This document shows, piece by piece, positions 1-46,197 of a DNA stretch of 46,658 bases. Location: NCBI GenBank assembly GCA_963716145.1, contig OY970292.1:1095404-1142061 (forward strand), read 5' to 3'. A program made the position numbers and the translations under genes. Source of the DNA: Candidatus Levyibacteriota bacterium (GTDB lineage: Bacteria; Patescibacteriota; Microgenomatia; Levybacterales; UBA12049). The notes under the pieces are model-generated. The model worked only from the letters and a program-made list of their open reading frames with translations, was not told the DNA's origin and ran no database searches. Each line of letters opens with the position of its first letter. Within the stretch, counting starts at the first letter, position 1.

Positions 1-930
1 GAGCCTGAATTATACCTACATCCCCATGCTAGGAGGGTTATTAGCGATAGATTGGATGATTTTATAGACAATGATAAAAATCAAGTAATAATTACAACTC
101 ATAGCCCAGAATTTATCAGAACTACGGATGATAGTTTAAATATTATCCTACTCAAAAAAAATAATTCTGAAACCACAGGATTTCCTATAAACATAAGAAG
201 CAGTAAATCTTTACTATTAAATAATAACCACAATGAAATATTTTTTGCTGATAAAGTTATAATTTGCGAAGGATTTGATGACTATATATTGAGATGGGTG
301 GCAAAAGAAAAATTCCCAAAGCAACTTGATGAAAAAAACATCTCAATTGTTACAGGTGGAGGGAAAGACAACTTTAAAAGGTTTATTGAATTGACACTAA
401 AGCTACAGATAGACTGCTATTTGTTTTCAGATTTCGATTATTTTTTAAGAGATTCTTCTGAAGCGGCAGAAAAATATAAAGAGGATATTAAGGATAAGAA
501 GACGGGAAAAATTAAAAAAATAAAATCATTCAAACATTTAAGTCTGGCAGATGTCGAAAAAGGATTCTTCAAACAAAAATGTATATTTGGGGATAGCTAC
601 GATAGAGAGATAGAAACTATTAAAAAACTTAGACAAATTATTAAAACCGAAGAGGAAAAAAACTTTTATAAATCCAAAACTGTTGATGAATTACAAAATA
701 GAGACGAAATGAAGCTACACTTAACTCACTTGAGAAAAAATGGTATAGGCATATTAGAGGGAGAAATTGAAAATTTATCTTTAGATTCAAGTTTTCTTTC
801 AAGCGAGAATAAATTGAGCCTGCAAAAGATATTTGAAATTAGTACAATGCTGGTTAGTGGAAAAGAAATATCAACTATAATCGATACTGCCCCAATTGAA
901 GAATTCTTGACACGCGTGTTTCAGGAGTAG
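1..930 (+). CDS. OLD-family ATP-dependent endonuclease (C-terminal part of ABC-type ATPase plus Toprim domain), 5'-truncated by the window edge
   Basis: Frame 1 is open from base 1; the ORF track starts at internal TTG 52. Translation begins EPELYLHPHARRVI (Walker-B/D-loop-like motif of OLD/AAA_15 ATPases), then VIITTHSPEFI (H-loop). A Toprim-like core follows: KVIICEGFDD ... YLFSDFDYF. Confidence 0.6.
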   Translation, partial: EPELYLHPHARRVISDRLDDFIDNDKNQVIITTHSPEFIRTTDDSLNIILLKKNNSETTGFPINIRSSKSLLLNNNHNEIFFADKVIICEGFDDYILRWVAKEKFPKQLDEKNISIVTGGGKDNFKRFIELTLKLQIDCYLFSDFDYFLRDSSEAAEKYKEDIKDKKTGKIKKIKSFKHLSLADVEKGFFKQKCIFGDSYDREIETIKKLRQIIKTEEEKNFYKSKTVDELQNRDEMKLHLTHLRKNGIGILEGEIENLSLDSSFLSSENKLSLQKIFEISTMLVSGKEISTIIDTAPIEEFLTRVFQE

Positions 931-1065: not shown

Positions 1066-1140
1066 CATGTTTGGAGTTACCGCCTTCGCTTTTAGCCACG
1101 GTGGGGATAGTCTGCCCAACTATATAATATAATACTCACG

Positions 1141-4595
<3,455 letters not shown>

Positions 4596-4608
4596 AAAAA
4601 GTTTAACT

Positions 4609-8433
<3,825 letters not shown>

Positions 8434-8521
8434 TTCAGAGTTTAGAGTTCAGAATTAAGAATTAAGTTTTTAAATAATACTTAAAAATTCTAAATTCATA
8501 ATTATAGATTCTGAATTTAAA
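8434..8521. repeat. Two opposed 7-nt-period arrays in the rpoC-rpsL spacer
   Basis: Array 1 at 8434-8468: TTCAGAG TTTAGAG TTCAGAA TTAAGAA TTAAGTT. Array 2 at 8487-8521: ATTCTAA ATTCATA ATTATAG ATTCTGA ATTTAAA. The second is roughly the reverse complement of the first (about 24/31 by hand). Confidence 0.8.
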
Positions 8522-8523
8522 TA

Positions 8524-12787: not shown

Positions 12788-12795
12788 ATGCGAAA

Positions 12796-12889
12796 ATTTC
12801 TAATTTCTAATTTCTAATTTCAAAAGATTAAACTTAGCCTTAAAATAATTAGAAATTTGATATTTGAAATTGGTATTTATTTGAAATTT
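12796..12889. repeat. Opposed 7-nt-period arrays in the divergent promoter region
   Basis: (ATTTCTA)x3 plus ATTTCAA at 12796-12823. TTAGAAA TTTGATA TTTGAAA TTGGTAT TTATTTG at 12849-12883 is in the opposite orientation (AATTAGAAATT versus AATTTCTAATT). Confidence 0.8.
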
Positions 12890-13546: not shown

Positions 13547-14455
13547 ATGTTAAAAGATACATTATTCTTAATTAATCCCAAATCAAAAGGCGGAAGTGCA
13601 ATGAAAATTTGGAAAAATGCCTGCAAGAAATATTCTGAATTGCCAAAGGAGCCTATTGATATCACAAAAGTAGATATATCTTCTCTTATCAAAAAAGAAA
13701 ATCCCAAAGTAGTCGTCATAGCAGGCGGAGACGGAACAATAAATTCTGTATGCACTGCAGTTTCAAGGATGGAGAAGAAACCTATTCTTAGTATTGTGCC
13801 GCTTGGTCTTGGGAACGCTCTATCGTACTGTCTAGGCGTTGAGAGCATGGATAAAGCAGTTGACGTTATTATGAAGCAGGAAAAAAAGATCACTGTTGAT
13901 TTGATGAAGACAAATATTAAAGTTCACGATAGGGGAGTTTTTAGTATCAGTGTCGGGTTTAGCGCAAGAATTGTTTTTCAGAGACAAGCATATAAGTATA
14001 TTGGTTTCGGATCATATATTCTTTCGGGACTTCAAAGTTTTTTTTCTCATCCCGAGAATGAAATTACATTTACAATAGATAAAAGCGTCACGCTAACTGC
14101 AAAAGCATCATCACTTATTGTTGCAAACAGTCCTGTTATCGGCCTGAACTATATTGTCGCGCCAAATGCCAGACTTAATGATGGATTTTTGGATTGCACT
14201 CTCCTATCAACCAAATACGCTGATCTCACTAATATGCGCTTAAGAGGGTTTAAGCACCCATTATATTCTGAATTGGGTAAAGTTCGCTTTAAGGCACGCC
14301 ACATAAGTATAGAAGGTGAACCTTTTGTGCAGATTGACGGTGATCCGGTAAAGCAGAGTGAAAAAATTGAGATAGAAATAATGCCAAAACAGCTTACTTT
14401 TCTTCGCAATATTGATAAGAACATAGATCAGGAATATTTGCCGTTTGTTTCATGA
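13547..14455 (+). CDS. Diacylglycerol-kinase-family lipid kinase (YegS/BmrU-like)
   Basis: DAGK catalytic motif VVVIAGGDGTINSV; 302 aa; starts 4 nt after the PHP gene. Confidence 0.8.
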   Translation: MLKDTLFLINPKSKGGSAMKIWKNACKKYSELPKEPIDITKVDISSLIKKENPKVVVIAGGDGTINSVCTAVSRMEKKPILSIVPLGLGNALSYCLGVESMDKAVDVIMKQEKKITVDLMKTNIKVHDRGVFSISVGFSARIVFQRQAYKYIGFGSYILSGLQSFFSHPENEITFTIDKSVTLTAKASSLIVANSPVIGLNYIVAPNARLNDGFLDCTLLSTKYADLTNMRLRGFKHPLYSELGKVRFKARHISIEGEPFVQIDGDPVKQSEKIEIEIMPKQLTFLRNIDKNIDQEYLPFVS

Positions 14456-15006
14456 TAAAAGAAATATATTTTGTATGGTGGTTTTTTGCTCCGGCCGGAA
14501 TAGCCAACATTGCAGCTTTCTTTTCAGGTAAAATTCCCCTCCTTAAATCCTATTCTTACCCAATTGATTTCAACGTCAAAGTTAGAGGTAGAAGAATTTT
14601 TGGATCCAATAAAACAATGCGCGGATTAATTTTTGGAATAATTTCGGCAATAGCCATTGTTTACTTGCAAGTATTTTTATTCAATCAATTTGCTTTCATT
14701 AAAAAAATTATCCCTTTGGATTACAATTCGATAAACCCAATTCTTCTTGGTGGTCTTGCAGGTTTTGGTGCTCTATTTGGTGATGCGCTTAAAAGTTTTT
14801 TTAAACGCCAAATAGGAGTAGAACCGGGAAGGAGTTGGTTTCCTTTTGATCAGATCGATTATATCCTGGGAGGAATATTATTCACCTCATTCTATATAAA
14901 CTTAAGCAGGGGAGAATATGTTACACTGCTTTGGGTTTGGTTTTTACTTCACCCTCTAACTACATTGCTGGGATATGTCTTCAAACTCAAAGACAGCCCG
15001 CTTTAG
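14452..15006 (+). CDS. CDP-archaeol synthase (CarS, DUF46) family CTP-transferase homologue
   Basis: PAGIANIAA...GSNKTMRGLIFG...GDALKSFFKRQIGVEPGRSWFPFDQIDYILG matches the CarS pattern (G-x-KT-x-RG, GD...SF-KR, DQ-D). It overlaps the lipid kinase stop by 4 nt (ATGA). Confidence 0.7.
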   Translation: MIKEIYFVWWFFAPAGIANIAAFFSGKIPLLKSYSYPIDFNVKVRGRRIFGSNKTMRGLIFGIISAIAIVYLQVFLFNQFAFIKKIIPLDYNSINPILLGGLAGFGALFGDALKSFFKRQIGVEPGRSWFPFDQIDYILGGILFTSFYINLSRGEYVTLLWVWFLLHPLTTLLGYVFKLKDSPL

Positions 15007-15035
15007 TATAAAGTATTAAGAAGTAAGTATAAAGT
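15007..15035. repeat. 7-nt-period array, 5' arm flanking the four-helix-bundle gene
   Basis: TATAAAG TATTAAG AAGTAAG TATAAAGT fills the whole gap between TAG (15004-15006) and ATG (15036). Confidence 0.8.
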
Positions 15036-15410
15036 ATGAACGGATCTAAAATAAAATCTTTTACAGATCTCATTACTTGGCAAAAAGCACATGCATTAGT
15101 GCTTATTATATACAAATTTACAAACGCATTCCCTAGAACAGAGACTTATTCATTAATTGATCAAATGAGAAGATCAGCTATTTCAATAACTAGTAATATT
15201 GCGGAGGGATTTTCTAGAAAAAGTAAAAAAGAAAAAATGCAATTTTATTATATGGCCCTTGGATCTACTACAGAGCTTCATAGCCAATTGATATTGTCAA
15301 AAGACTTGGGATATTTAAAGCAAGCAGAATTTTATGGAGTTATAGAAAAAATAGTTGAAGTAAATAAATTAATAAATAGTTTAATTAAGAGTTCTCAAAG
15401 TTATACTTAA
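15036..15410 (+). CDS. Four-helix-bundle protein (23S rRNA intervening-sequence protein / Avd-like family)
   Basis: FTDLITWQKAHALVLIIYKFTNAFPRTETYSLIDQMRRSAISITSNIAEGFSR...ALGSTTELHSQLILSKDLGYL is the typical family signature; 124 aa. Confidence 0.85.
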   Translation: MNGSKIKSFTDLITWQKAHALVLIIYKFTNAFPRTETYSLIDQMRRSAISITSNIAEGFSRKSKKEKMQFYYMALGSTTELHSQLILSKDLGYLKQAEFYGVIEKIVEVNKLINSLIKSSQSYT

Positions 15411-15440
15411 TACATACTACTTTATACTTAATACTTTATC
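15399..15440. repeat. 7-nt-period array, 3' arm flanking the four-helix-bundle gene
   Basis: TACTTAA TACATAC TACTTTA TACTTAA TACTTTA. ACTTTATACTTAATACTTTAT is the reverse complement of the 5' arm apart from a 7-nt gap. Confidence 0.8.
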
Positions 15441-16383
15441 ATTTGTCCGTTGAGTATTTTAGAGGGAAACGTACATTATTTTCATCCGGACTTTTTGGAT
15501 TGTGGGAAATATTTATCATCAGATCAGCAAGAAATCCCGTAAAGAATATTTGAAGGCCTGTAATGAAGAATAATGCGCCAAAGATAAGTAGCGGTCTATC
15601 ACCAATTGACGAACCTAGGAAGTGTAGATAGCTCAGATAAGCTAAAAGTACAAAGCCCACAAATGCAAATAAGCCTCCTATGAATCCAAAGAAATGTAAT
15701 GGTCTTTTGCCAAATTTTATTAAAAAGATTACAGTGAATAAGTCAGGAAGATTTTTCCATACTTTAGAGAAGCCATACTTGGACTTGCCAAATTTTCTTG
15801 CATCATGCTCTACTACTACCTCATCAACAATAAATCCTTGTTGGTACAGGAGTAGAGGAATAAAACGATAGAGGCCTCCATAAATATGCAGACTTTCTAT
15901 TGCTTCTTTAGTGAACAATTTAAAACCGCAATCAATGTCGTGAATTTTTAGACCAAATAAAATCCTGTTAAGATAATTAAAAAACTTTGATATAATTATC
16001 ATTTTGGATTTATCTTTGCGCACACGTCTCCAACCGACAACAACATCAGCTCCTTCTCTATGTTTTTCAATAAGCTTGCGAAGCTCTGAGGGTTTGTCCT
16101 GTAAATCAGCATCCATCGTTATCAGGACTTCACCCGCAGCAACAGAAAACCCCAGAGCTAGAGCATCAGCCTTGCCGCGGTTTCTTTTAAAAGAATACAC
16201 TGAAGTAAGTTTATCTTTTTGCGCGAAAGATTTGAGAATTTCGAGAGAGCGGTCTGTGGAGCCGTCATCAATAAAAACAATTTCTACTTCTTCTTTAAGC
16301 GAAGATAAAACCTTCTTCAACTCGATATGAAACGCTTTAAGGCTATCTTCCTCATTATAAACAGGGACAACAATACTTAACAT
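15439..16383 (-). CDS. GT2 polyprenol-phosphate glycosyltransferase (DPM1/GtrB-like) with C-terminal TM helices
   Basis: MLSIVVPVYNEEDSL...VFIDDGSTDRS...TMDADLQD, plus two C-terminal TM segments. The start is moved to ATG 16383 because the upstream 24 codons belong to a repeated hairpin element. Confidence 0.8.
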   Translation of the reverse strand: MLSIVVPVYNEEDSLKAFHIELKKVLSSLKEEVEIVFIDDGSTDRSLEILKSFAQKDKLTSVYSFKRNRGKADALALGFSVAAGEVLITMDADLQDKPSELRKLIEKHREGADVVVGWRRVRKDKSKMIIISKFFNYLNRILFGLKIHDIDCGFKLFTKEAIESLHIYGGLYRFIPLLLYQQGFIVDEVVVEHDARKFGKSKYGFSKVWKNLPDLFTVIFLIKFGKRPLHFFGFIGGLFAFVGFVLLAYLSYLHFLGSSIGDRPLLIFGALFFITGLQIFFTGFLADLMINISHNPKSPDENNVRFPLKYSTDK

Positions 16384-16455
16384 ACTTCGATATAACTCAG
16401 TATGACCCTGAGGACATTCGGCTGAGCTCAGTCGAAGCCCTAGTCGAAGGGTCAT
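16384..16455 (-). promoter_or_regulatory. Conserved hairpin leader, copy A (shared with galE)
   Basis: The plus strand reads ACTTCGATATAACTCAGTATGACCCTGAG...GTCGAAGGGTCAT. Arms ATGACCCT (16402-16409) and AGGGTCAT (16448-16455). An inner palindrome CTGAGCTCAG is present. The spacing to the start codon equals that of copy B. Confidence 0.6.
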
Positions 16456-16728: not shown

Positions 16729-18753
16729 TCATGAATTAGGGATTGTTTTTTTAAATTTTAGATAGATTAATCCCGTGAGTATTATAACTAAAGAAGTTAA
16801 ACTTATTATAACACCAATATCGACCCATTTTTGAGGCGTGTAATAAACTTCAAAGCTGTAATTTCCGGTCTTTGGTAAAATAAAACTATTAAACCCTTCG
16901 TAGTTCTTGGTTCTTGGTTCTTGGTTCTTGGTTCCACGAAGACTCCATCCAGGATCATAACCTTCAGCAAATACTAAAGTGCTATTTTTTTGTGCATTTT
17001 TTAAATTAACAATATATTTTGTTGGATTAATATATTTATAGTCTATTTTCATGTTTGGTTGGGGGCTCCAGAAGTGATCTTTGGGATCAGTAACTTCATA
17101 AACCCCGATCCTACCAAATCCATCAATTCTCTTTAGCCAAGGGATAGAATTTATTTCTTTTAATGTTTCTAGATATGATTTTTCATCGTACTTTCTATCC
17201 GTGAGGAAAATTTCCCCCATGCTGTCGTAAGGAACAATTATATATTTAACAGATGCTTCTTGTAGCACCTTTAAGGTTTCCCCTTTTTTTAATATTGCTA
17301 TATCTTCTTTGGGTGAATTTAATTTGAATAAGTCATTTGCAGGAATTGATGGATGATTATTTGAAAAGAAAGCAAACCTTTGTATTTGCGGGATCCAGAT
17401 CGTTCTATAAAACTTTTTATCTGAGGAAATAAATTTTTCTAATTTTATATATTCATTGGGAATTTGTACAGATTTAAATGTTCCCCCGAGTTCGCCAAGT
17501 AGGGCAGGGGAAGTAAGAAGTAAGAAGTAAGAGGTAAGAAGTAAGATGAAAAGATTTTGAAATTTGAAATTTGAAATTTGAAATTTTTGTTGAACCTTCA
17601 ACCAATTATATATTTGGGAAATGCTGTAGGGAATTAGTATTGAATAAGAAATGGCAATCAACGTATACCATTTTGTTGGATCTCTGAACATTAAGAAGCC
17701 TGGAACATGTTCAAACAGCCATAGATATAAGCCGCCAAATGGCTCCTGAGCTCCTTTTGCTAGAAAAGCACCTATCAGGCCCAAGATGGCAAAATACAAT
17801 AAATTGTTTTTGGTTCTCTGGTCTTTGGTTTTAGTAATAAAAAAAAGACTGCTAAATGCTAGAATTGGTAGAGTTAAAAATTCAGGTTTCATGAAATATG
17901 TTTTACCAAAAATATTCTCAGGCCAGTTGGGATGTAAAAGAGAAATTGTATTTTCGAGCTTTGCAAAACTGAAAAATTTTACAGCATCAATTGAGGAGTA
18001 AGCAGAACCCAGTTTTTTAATAGGATTTTGATTAACTAAAACTGTCGGTAAAATCCAAAAGAAGTTAAGAAGTACTAAGGTAGCTAATGGGGTTAGCAGC
18101 GATAAAATATATTTTAATGGCTTTCTAAATTGCTTGGTTATGAAGAAATAAATTATAAGCGCGGTTATCGTAATGTATAAAAACCGGATATCAAAAATAG
18201 CCTCAATACTTAAAGCTAATCCTAAGGATAATAATTTTTTAAATTCTATTTCGTTAGAGTCAAAAATATCAATAAAAATACTTAGTATCAAAGGAGAAAG
18301 AGCATAAGCCATCGCCACTCCTAATATCTGTCCACCTCCTATAACCATCAGGATATATATGTTAAATGTGTAAATAAAAGCCGCCAAGAGAGAAAAATCG
18401 TTTTTCGGCATTATTTTTTTATAAAGTGTGATTGATGAATAAATAGAAATAATTAGCAGTGGGAATAAATAATATATTCTTTCAATAACGCTCCAATGCA
18501 GGCCCAAGAATTCGCCTAAGAAAGTTATGGGAATACCTATGTTAAAAAATATCCATAACAAGGGAGCTGAAAATGCTCCCATACCCATCCCCAAATTCAT
18601 ATCCCATGCATAAAGAGGAAATGAATAGAGGGGATACATTGATTTATAATAAGGCCAGAAATCACCTCCTGTAATAACTCCAGGCAAAAACCACGGACTA
18701 TATACAACATAGATAATGAGTAAAGAAATAAAGTAATAAATTTTTGTTTTCAT
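16729..18753 (-). CDS. Large polytopic membrane protein, GT-C-like glycosyltransferase candidate, with C-terminal extracytoplasmic domain and terminal TM
   Basis: 674 aa. About 12 or more hydrophobic helices are followed by a soluble ~250-aa domain and a final TM. The N-terminal GGDFWPYY loop resembles the acidic first loop of GT-C enzymes. Architecture-based call. Confidence 0.4.
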   Translation of the reverse strand: MKTKIYYFISLLIIYVVYSPWFLPGVITGGDFWPYYKSMYPLYSFPLYAWDMNLGMGMGAFSAPLLWIFFNIGIPITFLGEFLGLHWSVIERIYYLFPLLIISIYSSITLYKKIMPKNDFSLLAAFIYTFNIYILMVIGGGQILGVAMAYALSPLILSIFIDIFDSNEIEFKKLLSLGLALSIEAIFDIRFLYITITALIIYFFITKQFRKPLKYILSLLTPLATLVLLNFFWILPTVLVNQNPIKKLGSAYSSIDAVKFFSFAKLENTISLLHPNWPENIFGKTYFMKPEFLTLPILAFSSLFFITKTKDQRTKNNLLYFAILGLIGAFLAKGAQEPFGGLYLWLFEHVPGFLMFRDPTKWYTLIAISYSILIPYSISQIYNWLKVQQKFQISNFKFQNLFILLLTSYFLLLTSPALLGELGGTFKSVQIPNEYIKLEKFISSDKKFYRTIWIPQIQRFAFFSNNHPSIPANDLFKLNSPKEDIAILKKGETLKVLQEASVKYIIVPYDSMGEIFLTDRKYDEKSYLETLKEINSIPWLKRIDGFGRIGVYEVTDPKDHFWSPQPNMKIDYKYINPTKYIVNLKNAQKNSTLVFAEGYDPGWSLRGTKNQEPRTKNYEGFNSFILPKTGNYSFEVYYTPQKWVDIGVIISLTSLVIILTGLIYLKFKKTIPNS
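16903..16937. repeat. (GTTCTTG)x4 heptad array inside a CDS
   Basis: GTTCTTG x4 then GTTCCAC. On the coding strand it gives ...NQEPRTKNYEGF. Confidence 0.9.
17511..17584. repeat. (AAGTAAG)x5 and (TTGAAAT)x4 heptad arrays inside a CDS
   Basis: 17511-17545: AAGTAAG x5 (one AGGTAAG). 17557-17584: TTGAAAT x4. They encode ...KFQISNFKFQNLFILLLTSYFLLLTS... in the minus-strand ORF. Confidence 0.9.
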
Positions 18754-29805: not shown

Positions 29806-31026
29806 TCAATGTTGCAATATAACCTTTTTTATGAGCCTAATGCTTTCTTTTACCGAATTTTCCCAAGTAGCAGTCTTTACTGCTTTCAATCCGTTTTCCT
29901 GAAGGTTTTTATACTTGGATTTATCATTTATGAGTTTTACCGCCTCAGAATACAAACTTTGTGGAGTATTCTTATCAAGAATAATGCCCGTCACATTGTC
30001 TTGAACAGTATCGCGCAGTCCTGGAACATTATACACAATTGACGGAGTCTTTTGGGAGGCTGCTTCATGAACTGTTAATCCCCATCCTTCGTGAACGGAA
30101 GGAATAAGCAATATATGCGCTTTTGCCAATAATTCATATTTTCTTTCCTGATTTACAAACCCAAAAAACTTAACTGAAGAAGACAGATTGTATTTTTGTA
30201 TTTTTGATTTAACAGATCCAATAATTTCGTCATCTCCCGATCCCACAATCCACAGGACGGGTTCTTGGTTCTTGGTTCTTGGTTCTTTGGTCTTGGTTCT
30301 TGGCTCTTTGGAGCTACCAGGATCTAAGACCTTTGAGCTAAGATCTTTCTTAATCAAGGAGAATGCTTCAATGGCATCATAGATTCCTTTTTGTTTATTA
30401 AGTCTTGCAAGATAGATAAAAGTAGGATTTTTTTCTTTAGGATATTTTTTAAGACTTTTTGGAATATTTATTCCCATTTTTAATACAGTTATTTGGCTCG
30501 GATTTATCCCTTCTTTAATTAAATCTTTTTTGGTTGACTCAGAAATAGTCATTGTCGGCACGTTTCTGTAAATACGCAAATATATTTTTTCAATTGCTCT
30601 AAAAATAAGTGCAACCGGATAGGGGAACAATCTGAAAAATAATTTGCTTGCAGTCTCACAGATCAGAGCGATAGTCTTTTTGCGGGCATAAATTGCGCTG
30701 AAAAATGGAAACCAGTGCACCTCATCGATGATGATGTCTATATTTTTTTTGTTTTTTAAATAATAAAAAAAAGCCAAAAAATGAACATTCCACCAATCTC
30801 CTCGTCTTATAAACTGAACACTGTCAATAGTCTCCTTTTTTTTTGCTCCCGAGAACATTGAACTAAAAACCAAGACCTCGTACCCTGCATTGGTCCATCC
30901 CTTAGCTAATTCATGAGTAAGAATTTCAGCACCTCCTCCTGCCGGATTTTTTATATCCCGCCAGTTCAATATTAAAATCCGAACGATTTTAGTATTGAAG
31001 TTCTTGGTTCTTGGTTCATGGTTCAT
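29806..31026 (-). CDS. GT4 family glycosyltransferase carrying heptad-array-derived N-terminus and interdomain insert
   Basis: Core ILILNWRDIKNPAGGGAE...SVHEGWGLTVHEAASQKTPSIVYNVPGLRD. The N-terminus MNHEPRTKN and the linker SSKEPRTKTKEPRTKNQEP are encoded by GTTCTTG-type arrays. Confidence 0.85.
   Translation of the reverse strand: MNHEPRTKNFNTKIVRILILNWRDIKNPAGGGAEILTHELAKGWTNAGYEVLVFSSMFSGAKKKETIDSVQFIRRGDWWNVHFLAFFYYLKNKKNIDIIIDEVHWFPFFSAIYARKKTIALICETASKLFFRLFPYPVALIFRAIEKIYLRIYRNVPTMTISESTKKDLIKEGINPSQITVLKMGINIPKSLKKYPKEKNPTFIYLARLNKQKGIYDAIEAFSLIKKDLSSKVLDPGSSKEPRTKTKEPRTKNQEPVLWIVGSGDDEIIGSVKSKIQKYNLSSSVKFFGFVNQERKYELLAKAHILLIPSVHEGWGLTVHEAASQKTPSIVYNVPGLRDTVQDNVTGIILDKNTPQSLYSEAVKLINDKSKYKNLQENGLKAVKTATWENSVKESIRLIKKVILQH
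30261..30311. repeat. Seven-copy GTTCTTG-type heptad array inside the GT4 interdomain linker
   Basis: GTTCTTG x3, GTTCTTT, GGTCTTG, GTTCTTG, GCTCTTT. Confidence 0.9.
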
Positions 31027-31072
31027 AATTGCTTGAGCGTATTCCTAAGACCCAAGATCAAAGATCTACGAC
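31000..31072. repeat. Opposed heptad arrays with only a 17-nt centre (empty version of the four-helix-bundle cassette site)
   Basis: 31000-31027: GTTCTTG GTTCTTG GTTCATG GTTCATA, which contains the GT4 start codon. 31045-31072: CTAAGAC CCAAGAT CAAAGAT CTACGAC, which contains the GT2 stop codon. The second arm uses the same four words as 33517-33544. Confidence 0.8.
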
Positions 31073-31842
31073 CTTTTTTGTTTATTATAATATCTTAGGA
31101 TTTTTAATCTGTAGAATACCGCTCCCGTATCCCAAAGCATCAGAAAAATAACTTTCCACATAGCATTTCTATTGATTGTATTTGTTTTGAATTTTAAACG
31201 GATAGGGGCTTCATAAATTTTTTTATAGCCGAGAAGATAGGACACAGCCAATATCTCAATATCAAAAGCGTAAGCTTTCACCAATAATCTCGGAAGAACA
31301 TCTCTGACAACTTTTCTTTTGAAAAATTTAAGTCCTACCTGTGTGTCTCTTACTTTAAAACCAAATAATGCTTTGGTTACCTGCCGATACCCCCAAGATA
31401 AAATTTTTCTATACAAAGGATAATTAACTTTGGATACCGGGTGCAGTTTGGAGCCTACAATTATATCCGCGTCGTACCACTCCATATGGTTAAGAAGCAT
31501 ATTAAAACCGGCCGGATGAATATCCATCCCTGCATCCATAAATCCTATTATGTCGCCTTTTGCTTTTAACATACCAATCCGTACCGCATGCCCTTTTCCT
31601 TGATTTTCTTCATAAGAAATAATCTTTACATTTTTTCCGGCCCTAAGCTTTTTGATGCCGGTTAATTTCTTAAGTGTGTCATCAACCAACCCGTCAATCA
31701 CTACGATTATTTCATATTTGTAGTTCAGGGTATCTAGTGAGCTTGTGATATTTTTAATATCTTGGATAATTGTCTTTTCTTGCTTATATGATGGTACAAC
31801 TACTGAGAGAAGGCGTATTTTAGAGCTTTTCCTTGCTGCCAT
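31066..31842 (-). CDS. GT2 family glycosyltransferase
   Basis: MAARKSSKIRLLSVVVPSYKQEKTI...VVIDGLVDDT...GFMDAGMD. The start is chosen at the second ATG (31842). Confidence 0.8.
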   Translation of the reverse strand: MAARKSSKIRLLSVVVPSYKQEKTIIQDIKNITSSLDTLNYKYEIIVVIDGLVDDTLKKLTGIKKLRAGKNVKIISYEENQGKGHAVRIGMLKAKGDIIGFMDAGMDIHPAGFNMLLNHMEWYDADIIVGSKLHPVSKVNYPLYRKILSWGYRQVTKALFGFKVRDTQVGLKFFKRKVVRDVLPRLLVKAYAFDIEILAVSYLLGYKKIYEAPIRLKFKTNTINRNAMWKVIFLMLWDTGAVFYRLKILRYYNKQKRS

Positions 31843-33091: not shown

Positions 33092-33493
33092 TTAGGTCTT
33101 GGTTTCTAGGTCTTGGTTTCTAGGTCTTTGGTCTATTGTATTTTTTTTAAGATAAGTAATTAGTCCATTTATTAGTCTGCCTGTTTTATTTGCTTGTTCC
33201 ATTAGTTCTTGATATTTTTGTTCGTCAATAAAATCTAAGTCTCTAGCCAATAATAAATGATATTTAGTTTCCTCCAAGGATCCTCTAGCTTGATAGCAAT
33301 ACTGAACATATTCTTTTCTATAAGCTCTCGCACTTCCTTCAACTAGGTTGGCTGCTACAGAACTTACAGAGCGGCATACTTGATCAATTAATCTAAATTT
33401 TTCATCATTTGGAAATATATTTACAATTTTGTATATCATCAACACTAGCTTATGCGCCTCTTTCCATGCTTCCAGCTTTTCAAAATTATTCAT
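33092..33493 (-). CDS. Four-helix-bundle protein (23S rRNA intervening-sequence protein / Avd-like family), second copy
   Basis: MNNFEKLEAWKEAHKLVLMIYKIVNIFPNDEKFRLIDQVCRSVSSVAANLVEGSAR...ARGSLEETKYHLLLARDLDFI. The C-terminal tail DQRPRNQDLETKT is encoded by the heptad array. The ORF track starts at upstream TTG 33511. Confidence 0.85.
   Translation of the reverse strand: MNNFEKLEAWKEAHKLVLMIYKIVNIFPNDEKFRLIDQVCRSVSSVAANLVEGSARAYRKEYVQYCYQARGSLEETKYHLLLARDLDFIDEQKYQELMEQANKTGRLINGLITYLKKNTIDQRPRNQDLETKT
33095..33136. repeat. Heptad array (14-nt unit GGTCTTG GTTTCTA x2.5), 3' arm of the second four-helix-bundle cassette
   Basis: GGTCTTG GTTTCTA GGTCTTG GTTTCTA GGTCTTT GGTCTAT. Confidence 0.85.
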
Positions 33494-33516
33494 TATTTTG
33501 TAATTATTCAAAAAAA

Positions 33517-33547
33517 CAAAGAACTAAGATCTACAATCCAAGAACTC
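33517..33547. repeat. Heptad array in opposite orientation, 5' arm of the second four-helix-bundle cassette
   Basis: CAAAGAA CTAAGAT CTACAAT CCAAGAA. Its reverse complement matches 33095-33120 at about 19/26. It contains the stop codon of the upstream GT4 gene. Confidence 0.8.
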
Positions 33548-41988: not shown

Positions 41989-42426
41989 TTATCGGGTTTT
42001 TATCTCTCTTTTGTTGTCTCCCAGATATTCAAAATATAAATTTATTCTTTTTTTTGGTAGGATTTTCTCAATCTTTTCCGGCCATTCTATGGCTACTATG
42101 TTTGATTTATCATTTAAAATTTCTTTAAGTCCCAATCCCTCAACGTCTTTTTCGCTCTCTATTCTATAAAGATCTATATGGTAAAAATTCTTGATTCTTG
42201 ATTCTTGCTTCTTAATTCTTATGTCATATTTCCGGACAATTATAAAAGTAGGTGAAATAATTTTGCTTTTGATTCCCAAACCCTTTGCAAATCCTTGAAC
42301 GAATGTTGTTTTACCGGATCCCAAATTTCCATATAGAGCAAGAGTCGATCCACTTTTTAGATTTTTTCCTAAATTAAATCCCAATTCCTGAGTCTCTGAA
42401 AATTTATTAGTTTTGTGGATTTGCAT
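41989..42426 (-). CDS. tsaE: tRNA threonylcarbamoyladenosine biosynthesis ATPase TsaE, with a heptad-array insert
   Basis: [24 protein letters not shown]...[10 protein letters not shown]...YHIDLYRI. The start is taken at MQIHKTNKF (42426). Confidence 0.85.
42187..42221. repeat. ATTCTTG-type heptad array inside tsaE
   Basis: ATTCTTG x3, CTTCTTA, ATTCTTA. It encodes [12 protein letters not shown] between the SPTF and HxDLYR motifs. Confidence 0.9.
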
Positions 42427-43246
42427 TATTATTTCTTCTAATTTTCCAGTAAACAAGTATACCACAAGACAGGATCAGAATTGAGCCTAATATTATGGCA
42501 ATAGGAACAAGGTTATTCTGCATAGAGCTTTTTATAAGTAATTTTTTACTTTTGCTTGGAGTGGGCGATAATCTTTTGGCAGCAGATGTAGTTCCAAGAA
42601 TCGAAGCGGATTTAGAGCTCAGATTAGCCGATTTTGTAGCAGCTTTTGTTGGGGACTTGGTGATTTTTGGCGTGGGGGAAGGGGTTGGAGTTTTTATCGC
42701 AGTTGGAGTAGGTATTTTGGTCGGAGTAGGTTCTTTTGTGGGAATGAGAGTAGGAGAGGGAGTTGGGGTTGGAGTAGGAGCAGGTCCGCTGTTGCTATTG
42801 CCCTTAGTTCCTTCAGCAAGTGCTTGAATTGTCCCCGTCCCATTAGGAGTTCTACCTATTGCAATATCTTCTCCGGGGTCATTGGTATATTCATATTGAT
42901 CCAAGATATTACCACTATTATCAAAAAGAACAACATGATCTCCCTCATTGTTAAGCATGGAACTTAATTCAATATATGGGTGTTGCGGATTTGTTTTTAT
43001 AAGGGTTGAAAGAATTTTTTTAGAGCTAGTACCACTATCATTGATAAAATCATTATCGTCGTCGATCCAATAATTTGAGATATCAATACTGTCCGGATTA
43101 TAAAATTCAACCCACTCTTTATTACCACTGCTTGGATGAACTATGAATTCATTTATAAGTATTTTATTTTCCGCGAAAGCAGGTTCGGGGAGCGCCAAAA
43201 AAACTAACACAGTAATTAAACTAATTTTCAGAGACTTCCTCATCAA
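42407..43246 (-). CDS. Lamin-tail-domain surface protein with Pro/Thr-rich stalk and C-terminal TM anchor
   Basis: Signal peptide, then [36 protein letters not shown] (LTD signature). PT-rich linker [28 protein letters not shown]... and a terminal TM. Confidence 0.75.
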
Positions 43247-46088: not shown

Positions 46089-46197
46089 AATTTTTAATTT
46101 TCAGTTCTCAATTTTCATTGAATTTTCAATGACTAAATGTTTAAAAATTAAAACATTGTGATTTGATTGAAAATTGTAAATTTCAAATTGAAAATTA
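46089..46197. repeat. Opposed 7-nt-period arrays upstream of ftsE
   Basis: 46096-46130: AATTTTC AGTTCTC AATTTTC ATTGAAT TTTCAAT. 46160-46197: GATTTGA TTGAAAA TTGTAAA TTTCAAA TTGAAAA, in roughly reverse-complement orientation. Confidence 0.75.

Follow-up and report, generated by a model that had tools for sequence, protein, structure and literature searches.

How does a small gene come to occupy the space between two host genes so completely that short tandem repeats fill every base it leaves over? The question is raised by a 46,658-nt stretch from the genome of a Candidatus Levyibacteriota bacterium (contig OY970292.1, positions 1,095,404 to 1,142,061; the window hereafter), in which a gene for a four-helix-bundle protein of the PF05635 family lies between carS and a family-2 glycosyltransferase (GT2) gene. 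An array of 7-nt repeats (heptads) precedes the gene and an inverted array follows it; we refer to arrays and gene together as cassette 1. An earlier note, made from the sequence alone, had pointed out that this arrangement copies the geometry of the intervening sequences (IVSs) of 23S rRNA and had proposed an IVS-like insertion cassette in a protein-coding context. Our analysis leads to a similar reading, to which we assign a probability of roughly 60%: cassette 1 is an IVS-type element carried in mRNA rather than rRNA, consisting of purine heptads, a PF05635 open reading frame (ORF) and inverted pyrimidine heptads.

A PF05635 gene fills the loop of an inverted heptad pair

The features of cassette 1 and its host genes are as follows.

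14452..15006, plus strand: upstream host gene, CarS-like CDP-archaeol synthase family (Pfam PF01864, E 1e-21)
15005..15037, plus strand: cassette 1 5' arm, purine-rich heptads of AGTATAA type (Tandem Repeats Finder, TRF; period 7, 4.7 copies)
15036..15410, plus strand: cassette 1 four-helix-bundle gene, 124 aa, isoelectric point (pI) 9.6 (PF05635, 23S_rRNA_IVP; S23p family)
15401..15441, plus strand: cassette 1 3' arm, pyrimidine-rich inverted heptads of ATACTTA type, about 5 units (TRF)
15439..16455, minus strand: downstream host gene, GT2, convergent with the cassette 1 ORF (Pfam PF00535, E 1.3e-35)

Cassette 1 fits base for base between the carS stop codon and the end of the GT2 gene. The carS stop, TAG, occupies 15004-15006, and the left spacer that begins at the next base (15007-15035, 29 nt) reads TATAAAG TATTAAG AAGTAAG TATAAAG T and reaches the base preceding the ATG of the ORF, which shares the orientation of carS. 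The right array (15403-15436 by TRF, period 7, 4.9 copies) opens within the final codons of the ORF, spans its stop codon TAA (15408-15410) and terminates on the GT2 stop codon (15439-15441). The earlier note had described these boundaries, with a 375-nt ORF (15036-15410) filling the gap between the arrays, and each of them was borne out. It had also described the right arm as the reverse complement of the left apart from one heptad-sized gap, and this is what we find: ACTTTATACTTAATACTTTAT (15419-15439) is the reverse complement of 15008-15035 less a single heptad, CTTCTTA.

The complementarity of these arms is not due to chance. An ungapped alignment of the two (15005-15037 with 15403-15435) shows 85% complementarity over 33 nt, with 365 nt lying between them. 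When the reverse complement of the left arm was compared with all 46.6 kb of the window, the single best match was the right arm (28/33), and the next best beyond cassette 1 reached 23/33. Shuffling the local 1.5 kb 500 times with its dinucleotide composition preserved gave best matches with a mean of 19.0 (sd 1.0) and a maximum of 23. Scanning 14300-15700 for promoters and terminators returned counts only at chance level, and an Rfam search of the whole window, together with a permissive local search, matched no rRNA and no other family. Unlike an rRNA IVS, then, cassette 1 has a protein-coding junction, carS|GT2, as its host.

The encoded protein is a full-length member of PF05635, with residues 11-115 aligned to profile positions 2-106 of 106 (E 4.5e-37; 126.9 bits against a Pfam cut-off of 33.8). 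The closest solved structure, matched by profile A1 at E 1e-24, is that of XCC0516 (PDB 2GSC); PDB 2RLD is also matched (E 1e-08). Both entries contain five chains, and XCC0516 is a homopentameric toroid (PMC4990558). By homology, the cassette 1 protein is probably a homopentameric toroid as well.

The family's fold brings to mind a quite different origin, in which the gene would be a remnant of a diversity-generating retroelement (DGR): an Avd accessory gene that survived the loss of its reverse transcriptase and template repeat. Avd itself forms a pentameric barrel with a strong positive charge and acts on RNA with a partner enzyme (PMC6182149); it is homologous to the PF05635 pentamers, the cassette 1 protein is likewise predicted to form a basic pentameric barrel, and we obtained a weak match to the bAvd-like family PF22296 (E 2.1e-07). 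That match scores 31.8 bits, below its cut-off of 40, compared with 126.9 bits for PF05635. No reverse transcriptase occurs among the neighbor genes examined in the window or at orthologous loci (DAGK, CarS, GT2 and a membrane protein), and the DGR template and variable repeats are missing too. The heptad bracket and the wedging into operons are, moreover, common to rRNA IVS genes. Given the missing reverse transcriptase and the sub-threshold bAvd score, we rejected a DGR ancestry, which we consider scarcely credible.

The heptad bracket recurs across related loci

A second PF05635 gene in the window, found by phmmer from the cassette 1 protein (E 6.6e-26), is bracketed in the same way (cassette 2, 33092-33546).

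33092..33511, minus strand: four-helix-bundle gene of cassette 2, coding for 139 aa with the TTG start or 133 aa with the ATG start at 33493 (phmmer)
33510..33546, minus strand: cassette 2 5' arm, GTTCTTG / GATCTTA-type heptads, starting inside the end of the upstream family-4 glycosyltransferase (GT4) gene (inverted pair)
33094..33144, minus strand: cassette 2 3' arm, CCAAGAC/CTAGAAA array coding the C-terminal tail (TRF 33093-33128, period 14, 100%)

Cassette 2 sits between GT4 and flippase genes, all on one strand, and its 3' array stops 3 nt short of the flippase ATG (33088). Its arms (37 nt) are 73% complementary with 365 nt between them, and its heptad differs from that of cassette 1. 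Orthologues occupy the identical GT4|flippase junction in two related contigs (L155 and L156). Both inverted heptad pairs of the window with loops longer than 300 nt enclose four-helix-bundle genes.

A metagenome scan extended this comparison to 80 loci with homologues 53-69% identical. At nearly all of them, a heptad array ends at the ATG and an inverted array lies at the stop. Over 72 non-redundant loci, the best period-7 score averaged 9.15 upstream and 11.14 at the stop, while other periods at the same flanks scored 2.3-2.9 and the flanks of 101 control ORFs from the same loci 2.99 and 3.76. Both arrays are present in 67 of 79 cassettes, nearly all of them from metagenome contigs of the candidate phyla radiation (CPR), with a peak in arm length at 4-5 units. 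In 41/69, the left array abuts or enters the ATG (gap of 0 or less). The earlier note had asked whether other homologues would prove to be bracketed; the window's second paralogue and these 67 cassettes answer that they are.

The heptad core varies from cassette to cassette (GTAT, GAAT, GTAG, GGAAT and CGAAT among others), and the arms within one cassette match. Mean duplex energies accordingly separate cognate arms (-21.7 kcal/mol) from non-cognate (-12.35) and shuffled ones (-9.05), with Watson-Crick pairs at 85% of stem positions. On the sense strand, arms of the CPR set also have a consistent polarity, with G/purines enriched in the 5' arm and C/pyrimidines in the 3' arm. In 55/59 loci the ORF has the same orientation as its upstream neighbor; the median gaps to the neighbors, 29 and 27 nt, are too short for the cassette to have a promoter of its own. 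Shine-Dalgarno-like motifs were uninformative: in these genomes they precede 10% of four-helix-bundle genes and 11% of other ORFs, an equally low share. It appears that the inverted heptad bracket characterizes PF05635 as a whole, a hallmark that had not been stated before.

Cassettes are portable, under selection and occasionally lost

Several pairs of cassettes encode proteins 83-91% identical (L044/L060, L038/L072, L044/L072 and others) and share no similarity in the 900 nt on either side. When such pairs are aligned, similarity opens at the left array and ends directly past the right array. The cassette is therefore a discrete, portable unit. Its protein is under purifying selection: the ratio of nonsynonymous to synonymous substitution rates (dN/dS) is 0.06-0.12 for the cassette 1 protein against its orthologues and, apart from one near-identical pair (0.51), 0.05-0.14 wherever dS could be measured. 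Such low values indicate that the four-helix-bundle protein is functional in these lineages.

The earlier note had suggested that relatives be compared at the carS|GT2 junction. Nine long metagenome contigs (L001-L009) carry orthologous cassettes there, with proteins 73-75% identical and AGTATTA-type arrays on both sides. Among relatives' contigs that encode an identical protein, the left array has 6, 8 or 13 units, so array copy number changes fast. An empty site also exists: in the species representative L090, the carS-GT2 gap is 24 nt, with no four-helix-bundle gene and a spacer that retains one TTAATAC-like unit. A neighbor-joining tree of DAGK and CarS places L090 within the cassette-carrying clade (clade bootstrap 1.0), grouped with the window sequence (0.83). 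Since L090 is nested among carriers, loss of the cassette is the simpler reading. Together, the bracketed relatives and the empty site support the insertion cassette that the note had envisaged, and they show that the cassette is mostly inherited vertically over long periods and is occasionally lost or relocated. Neither the window cassette nor alignment A3 shows a target-site duplication, although short ones may be hidden by the fuzzy edges of the arrays.

The same architecture outside the CPR and inside 23S rRNA

A tblastn search of plasmids returned PF05635 genes that were chiefly cyanobacterial, and we examined 16 loci. Inverted short-period arrays flank the gene in most of them, with units that differ between organisms:

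Trichormus: TCAGAAT
Nostoc punctiforme: TCAGGAG
N. edaphicum: GGGAACA
Geminocystis: AAAAGGG
Calothrix brevissima: AGGGTGT
Riemerella: GGTTTAA

The host junctions include cas operons. A four-helix-bundle gene separates cas6 from cas4 in two cyanobacteria and cas10 from cmr3 in another (loci L135, Pseudanabaena pPg_01; L142, Anabaena sp. 90 pANA02; L139, Picosynechococcus). In Xanthomonadaceae, a PF05635 cassette stands between accB and accC in the essential acetyl-CoA carboxylase operon and is kept across genera (L148, Xanthomonas campestris; L151, X. sacchari; L153, Stenotrophomonas). There (GGGAATC)4 begins past the accB stop and the inverted array finishes at the accC ATG; in Stenotrophomonas the cassette start codon falls inside the array. 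The Xanthomonas gene at this junction corresponds to XCC0516, and its left array is row 15 of a published catalogue of Xanthomonas repeats (PMC4692102).

On plasmid AZO_p2 of Azospirillum lipoferum, the PF05635 ORF is inside 23S rRNA (Rfam LSU, 906.7 bits) and is a genuine IVS, with stem arms built of inverted heptads (CAGAGGA CGGATGA ... TCCGTCC TCTGTCT). This locus, together with the heptamers of the Coxiella IVS (PMC4990558), bears out the parallel with rRNA that the earlier note had drawn. In Coxiella, the S23p ATG is preceded by two to three tandem GACAGAT heptamers and a degenerate one, in numbers that differ among strains, and the 28-bp stem is cleaved by RNase III where the first repeat starts (PMC4990558). 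PF05635 ORFs are also present in rRNA insertions of CPR bacteria (PMC11270868).

The likeness to IVSs with an S23p ORF (helix-45 of Coxiella burnetii, Leptospira, Brucella, Azospirillum) extends to several details. The same family is encoded in the loop of an inverted-repeat stem, and the ORF is co-oriented with the host transcript. As in Coxiella, heptamers stand directly before the ATG in variable number; as in Azospirillum, the arms are inverted heptads of the same purine-5'/pyrimidine-3' polarity. The terminal inverted repeats of cassette 1 (33 nt, 85% complementary) accord with the stem of about 20-30 bp expected of IVSs. Unlike the S23p of Coxiella, which is decaying, the protein here is under purifying selection.

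The polarity of the arms held in 13/13 non-CPR loci with both arms, and exact abutment of start and stop codons recurs in CPR, cyanobacteria, Bacteroidota and Proteobacteria despite unrelated heptad sequences. Such abutment would also be expected of a simple autoregulatory operator, whose arms bind the protein and sequester start and stop codons with neither excision nor mobility. The start codon in the last 5'-arm heptad, the stop codon within the 3' arm, a basic protein (pI 9.6) homologous to pentameric rings and the peak of arm length at 4-5 units would all suit such an operator. It leaves unexplained the empty site, the portability of the cassette and the existence of gene-less hairpins (below), as well as the identity of this architecture with the RNase III-cleaved stem of rRNA IVSs. 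We therefore regard regulation alone as an improbable account.

Heptad arrays and hairpins without the gene

The window contains seven strict period-7 arrays and none of periods 5, 6 or 8-11. Period-7 arrays thus occur window-wide and are not exclusive to the four-helix-bundle gene. Heptad hairpins also occur without the gene; the arrays are a wider class, in which the gene fills some loops only.

8434..8522, no strand: gene-less heptad hairpin that separates the rpoC end from rpsL
12795..12871, no strand: gene-less heptad hairpin, (AATTTCT)4, 22-nt loop and inverted array, between divergent genes
31000..31080, no strand: gene-less heptad hairpin at the GT2|GT4 junction
46089..46196, no strand: gene-less heptad hairpin, AATTTTC / GAAAATT type, 48-nt loop

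The hairpin at 12795-12871 is missing in relatives L005 and L090, where the junction has a spacer of just 1 nt. At the GT2|GT4 junction, the window and L155 each have a solo hairpin, and L156 has a loaded cassette. We considered whether the solo hairpin is a cassette that has shed its ORF; its position fits, but the L156 cassette has a different heptad, and simple ORF loss is not supported. Inverted heptad pairs are bimodal in loop length, with clearly gene-less pairs at 0-90 nt and loaded pairs mostly at 340-460 nt. The remaining longer-range pairs, whether or not a gene lies inside, resemble cross-pairs of neighboring elements, as judged by eye.

These observations suggest a rival that operates on DNA, akin to REPINs (doublets of repetitive extragenic palindromic, or REP, sequences that form hairpins) and RAYTs (REP-associated tyrosine transposases). 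Here the arrays would be terminal repeats, the gene-less hairpins non-autonomous copies and the protein a factor acting in trans, with RNA pairing incidental. There is a resemblance: in both systems inverted copies of a short repeat flank a single-copy-type gene, inheritance is mostly vertical with occasional loss, and the repeat may likewise be dispersed as gene-less hairpins, which here (within 46 kb) match the heptads of the local cassette only weakly. Close cassettes in unrelated contexts, with homology stopping at the outer array edges, would be expected of such an element, as would the presence/absence variation of both cassettes and solo hairpins between relatives, the two classes of loop length and the junction that is solo in one lineage and loaded in another. 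In Xanthomonas, 70 of 186 arrays form inverted pairs (PMC4692102), and at least one abuts a PF05635 gene. Stem mismatches, in which G.U is not in excess over A.C, are likewise compatible with selection on DNA.

Several findings weigh on the other side. The gene encodes a PF05635 four-helix bundle, not a Y1 (RAYT) transposase, and the protein has no nuclease or recombinase motif. Target-site duplications that might betray insertion, other than short ones that the fuzzy array edges may hide, are not seen at the window cassette or in alignment A3. Each cassette has a tandem heptad array of its own sequence, in contrast to the one conserved sequence of REP, and dispersed arrays resemble the local cassette core only weakly (mean distance 1.89 mismatches versus 2.38 for other loci). 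The cassette core of L156 is unlike the solo hairpins at the shared junction. Finally, purine/pyrimidine polarity and 93% co-orientation with the upstream gene suggest a strand-specific, transcript-level role. On balance a DNA-level element of the REPIN/RAYT kind is unlikely, yet it remains a serious rival to the IVS-type reading.

Arrays without a gene might instead mean that the association is a side effect, in which slippage-prone heptad repeats build up in short spacers where small genes happen to land or survive. The window and related loci (187 kb) hold 64 period-7 arrays beyond cassettes, some inside ORFs; copy number changes rapidly; and heptameric repeats are over-represented in many bacteria (PMC4692102). 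Against this, an array score attained by 36-74% of four-helix-bundle flanks is reached by just 2-6% of control flanks from the same loci, and arms match within cassettes, not between them. Polarity and start/stop abutment recur across phyla with unrelated heptads, and no other gene family was seen in long inverted-heptad loops in this sample, where cross-pairs were judged by eye. Flank scores and cognate-arm energies largely refute a chance association, and we hold it to be very unlikely.

Additional arrays were noted inside or beside other genes. A 674-aa membrane-protein ORF (16729-18753, minus strand) contains perfect or near-perfect heptad arrays at 16897-16934, 17510-17546 and 17556-17586, which encode 7-aa peptide repeats (EPRTKNQ..., LLLTSYF... 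and FKFQISN...). Its L090 orthologue also has an in-ORF array, (TAAGAAG)4 at L090 6626-6655. Cassette-2-type arrays (GGTTCTT, ATTCTTG) occur at 30260-30308 and 31000-31026 in a GT4 gene (29806-31026, minus strand), one inserted within the Glycos_transf_1 domain and one at the start codon, and a further array of this type lies at 42187-42232 in the TsaE gene (41989-42465, minus strand). In L156 (5906-6135), about seven copies of a 28-nt unit, TAATGCTTATTGTTTATTGTATTTTGAG, follow a second four-helix-bundle gene; the unit is itself composed of TTGTTTA-type heptads. A zero-loop solo hairpin, (TATGACT)4.4 followed by an inverted TAAGTCC-type array, stands at the GT2 gene start in L001 (5334-5394), with no counterpart among the arrays detected in the window.

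Published repeats of this kind are widespread. They include (GGGAATC)n in Xanthomonas; the short tandemly repeated repetitive (STRR) sequences and GGGGATT in Nostoc/Calothrix; TAACTGA in Beggiatoaceae, cyanobacteria and Bacteroidetes; and GGGACCG and MTYCTGA in Geobacter (PMC4692102, PMC4679880, PMC2700814). Arrays typically have four units (Xanthomonas, Geobacter) or five (Geobacter), often form convergent inverted pairs, lie near gene ends or start codons and vary fast in length; unknown regulators have been invoked for them in Xanthomonas, Nostoc, Beggiatoaceae and Geobacter (PMC4692102, PMC4679880, PMC2700814). The arrays described here resemble STRR-type heptanucleotide repeats in their tandem 7-nt units, mostly intergenic location and copy number that is polymorphic between strains. 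They differ in that cassette 1 has AT-rich arrays, which therefore cannot form a G-quadruplex, arranged as a matched inverted pair tied to a gene. The published work treats heptad arrays as G-quadruplex, regulatory or translational elements and draws no link to PF05635. No prior statement of a general rule joining PF05635 to heptads was found in the openly searchable literature, subscription-only journals being beyond reach; the near-matches were the Coxiella heptamers and repeat catalogues that make no connection to the protein.

A model for cassette processing

How might an IVS-type cassette behave in an mRNA? With no room for a promoter, cassette 1 would be transcribed by read-through from carS. 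The two arms would then pair in the transcript to give a duplex of about 30 bp with the ORF looped out, and RNase III would cut this duplex, as it does in rRNA IVSs, releasing the ORF RNA and leaving the ends of the host cistrons unchanged. We infer that cassettes are tolerated in rRNA and in tight or essential operons because such cleavage leaves host cistron ends intact.

More speculatively, the basic homopentameric ring predicted by homology may read the array with one heptad per protomer. We raise this idea because the 7-nt register is strict, the core is partly conserved next to a variable spacer, and arms most often have 4-5 heptads. Binding of the ring could control processing or translation of the cassette's own RNA and could also act on the dispersed gene-less hairpins. 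The Omega repressor/ParB of plasmid pSM19035, which acts on 7-bp heptad arrays, offers a precedent for a protein that recognizes contiguous 7-bp units, direct or inverted, with one unit per binding module. It differs in its unrelated fold, that of a ribbon-helix-helix dimer, in its role at a DNA operator and centromere, and in not forming a gene cassette.

A number of observations count against the IVS-type reading. The first group concerns the stem. The minimum free energy (MFE) fold of 14990-15460, which the earlier note had proposed as a check, does contain the long-range stem joining the arms of cassette 1, though the region as a whole is no stabler than shuffled sequence (z 0.18). The MFE fold of cassette 2 also holds its arm stem, with a whole-region z of -0.33, which is not significant, and a centroid structure that lacks the stem. 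The lack of significance arises because the 365-nt coding loop dominates the energy and swamps the stem, and we therefore used the arm-against-arm duplex energies given above instead. The arms can also be very unequal, as in L001 (13 left units against 3-4 right units), a disparity for which pairing alone is inadequate. Across 66 stems, mismatches carry no RNA-specific wobble signal (50 G.U versus 40 A.C), so that constraint at the RNA level and at the DNA level is indistinguishable by this measure. Moreover, as the 3' arm shares the final codons of the ORF, ribosomes translating them would melt it.

The second group concerns the arrays and the protein. A contiguous 4-nt core with a 3-nt spacer is only a moderate trend (17/45 arrays versus 20% by chance, p 0.004). 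Some non-CPR cassettes have period-8 arrays, a single detectable arm or direct arrays. Period 8 is seen at L143 (Leptolyngbya), L144 (Gemmatirosa), L139 (Picosynechococcus) and L145 (Legionella), and the direct arrangement in Pseudanabaena (L135), where (AAAAGCT)14 lies upstream and (AAAAGCC)9 downstream in the same orientation, with a separate hairpin upstream. The S23p of Coxiella is decaying and apparently not made (PMC4990558). Lastly, the four-helix bundle has no recognizable catalytic motif that would account for movement of the cassette.

Other features of the window

The rpoB and rpoC genes (1111-8433, plus strand) occur as nine or more short ORFs that lie in different frames, with Pfam Rpb2 domains 1, 2, 3, 45, 6 and 7 and Rpb1 domains 1, 2 and 5 carried on separate ORFs. 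As both genes are essential and single-copy, this points to assembly frameshift errors in that region or to something unusual. The other long genes of the window are intact. The window opens (1-927, plus strand) with the C-terminal part of an OLD-like TOPRIM / AAA_15 defence-type nuclease-ATPase, truncated by the window start.

Implications

Three separate puzzles meet in this architecture: the nature and origin of rRNA IVSs, open since 1990; the function of PF05635; and the excess of 7-nt repeats in bacterial genomes, which was noted in 2007 and credited to "unidentified regulators". The family concerned is very large: its members number in the thousands, and genomes of cyanobacteria, Bacteroidota and CPR bacteria have many copies each. 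For genome annotation, the findings mean that cassettes split operons without breaking them, that arrays encode the termini of neighboring proteins, and that heptad arrays cause variation in assembly and copy number.

A broader and more tentative possibility is that PF05635 pentamers are the missing partner of bacterial heptad arrays, with an arm of some five heptads corresponding to one ring. The same rather doubtful scheme would have a single system take three forms, namely rRNA IVSs, operon cassettes (carS|GT2, accB|accC and the cas junctions) and gene-less hairpins as non-autonomous derivatives. If true, it would account at once for where IVSs come from and for the excess of heptamers long noted in bacterial genomes. 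Because IVSs, PF05635 and heptad repeats co-occur as one architecture, all three puzzles become directly testable, and X. campestris XCC0516 offers a tractable case, with a solved structure, a cassette in the essential accBC operon and 186 catalogued arrays.

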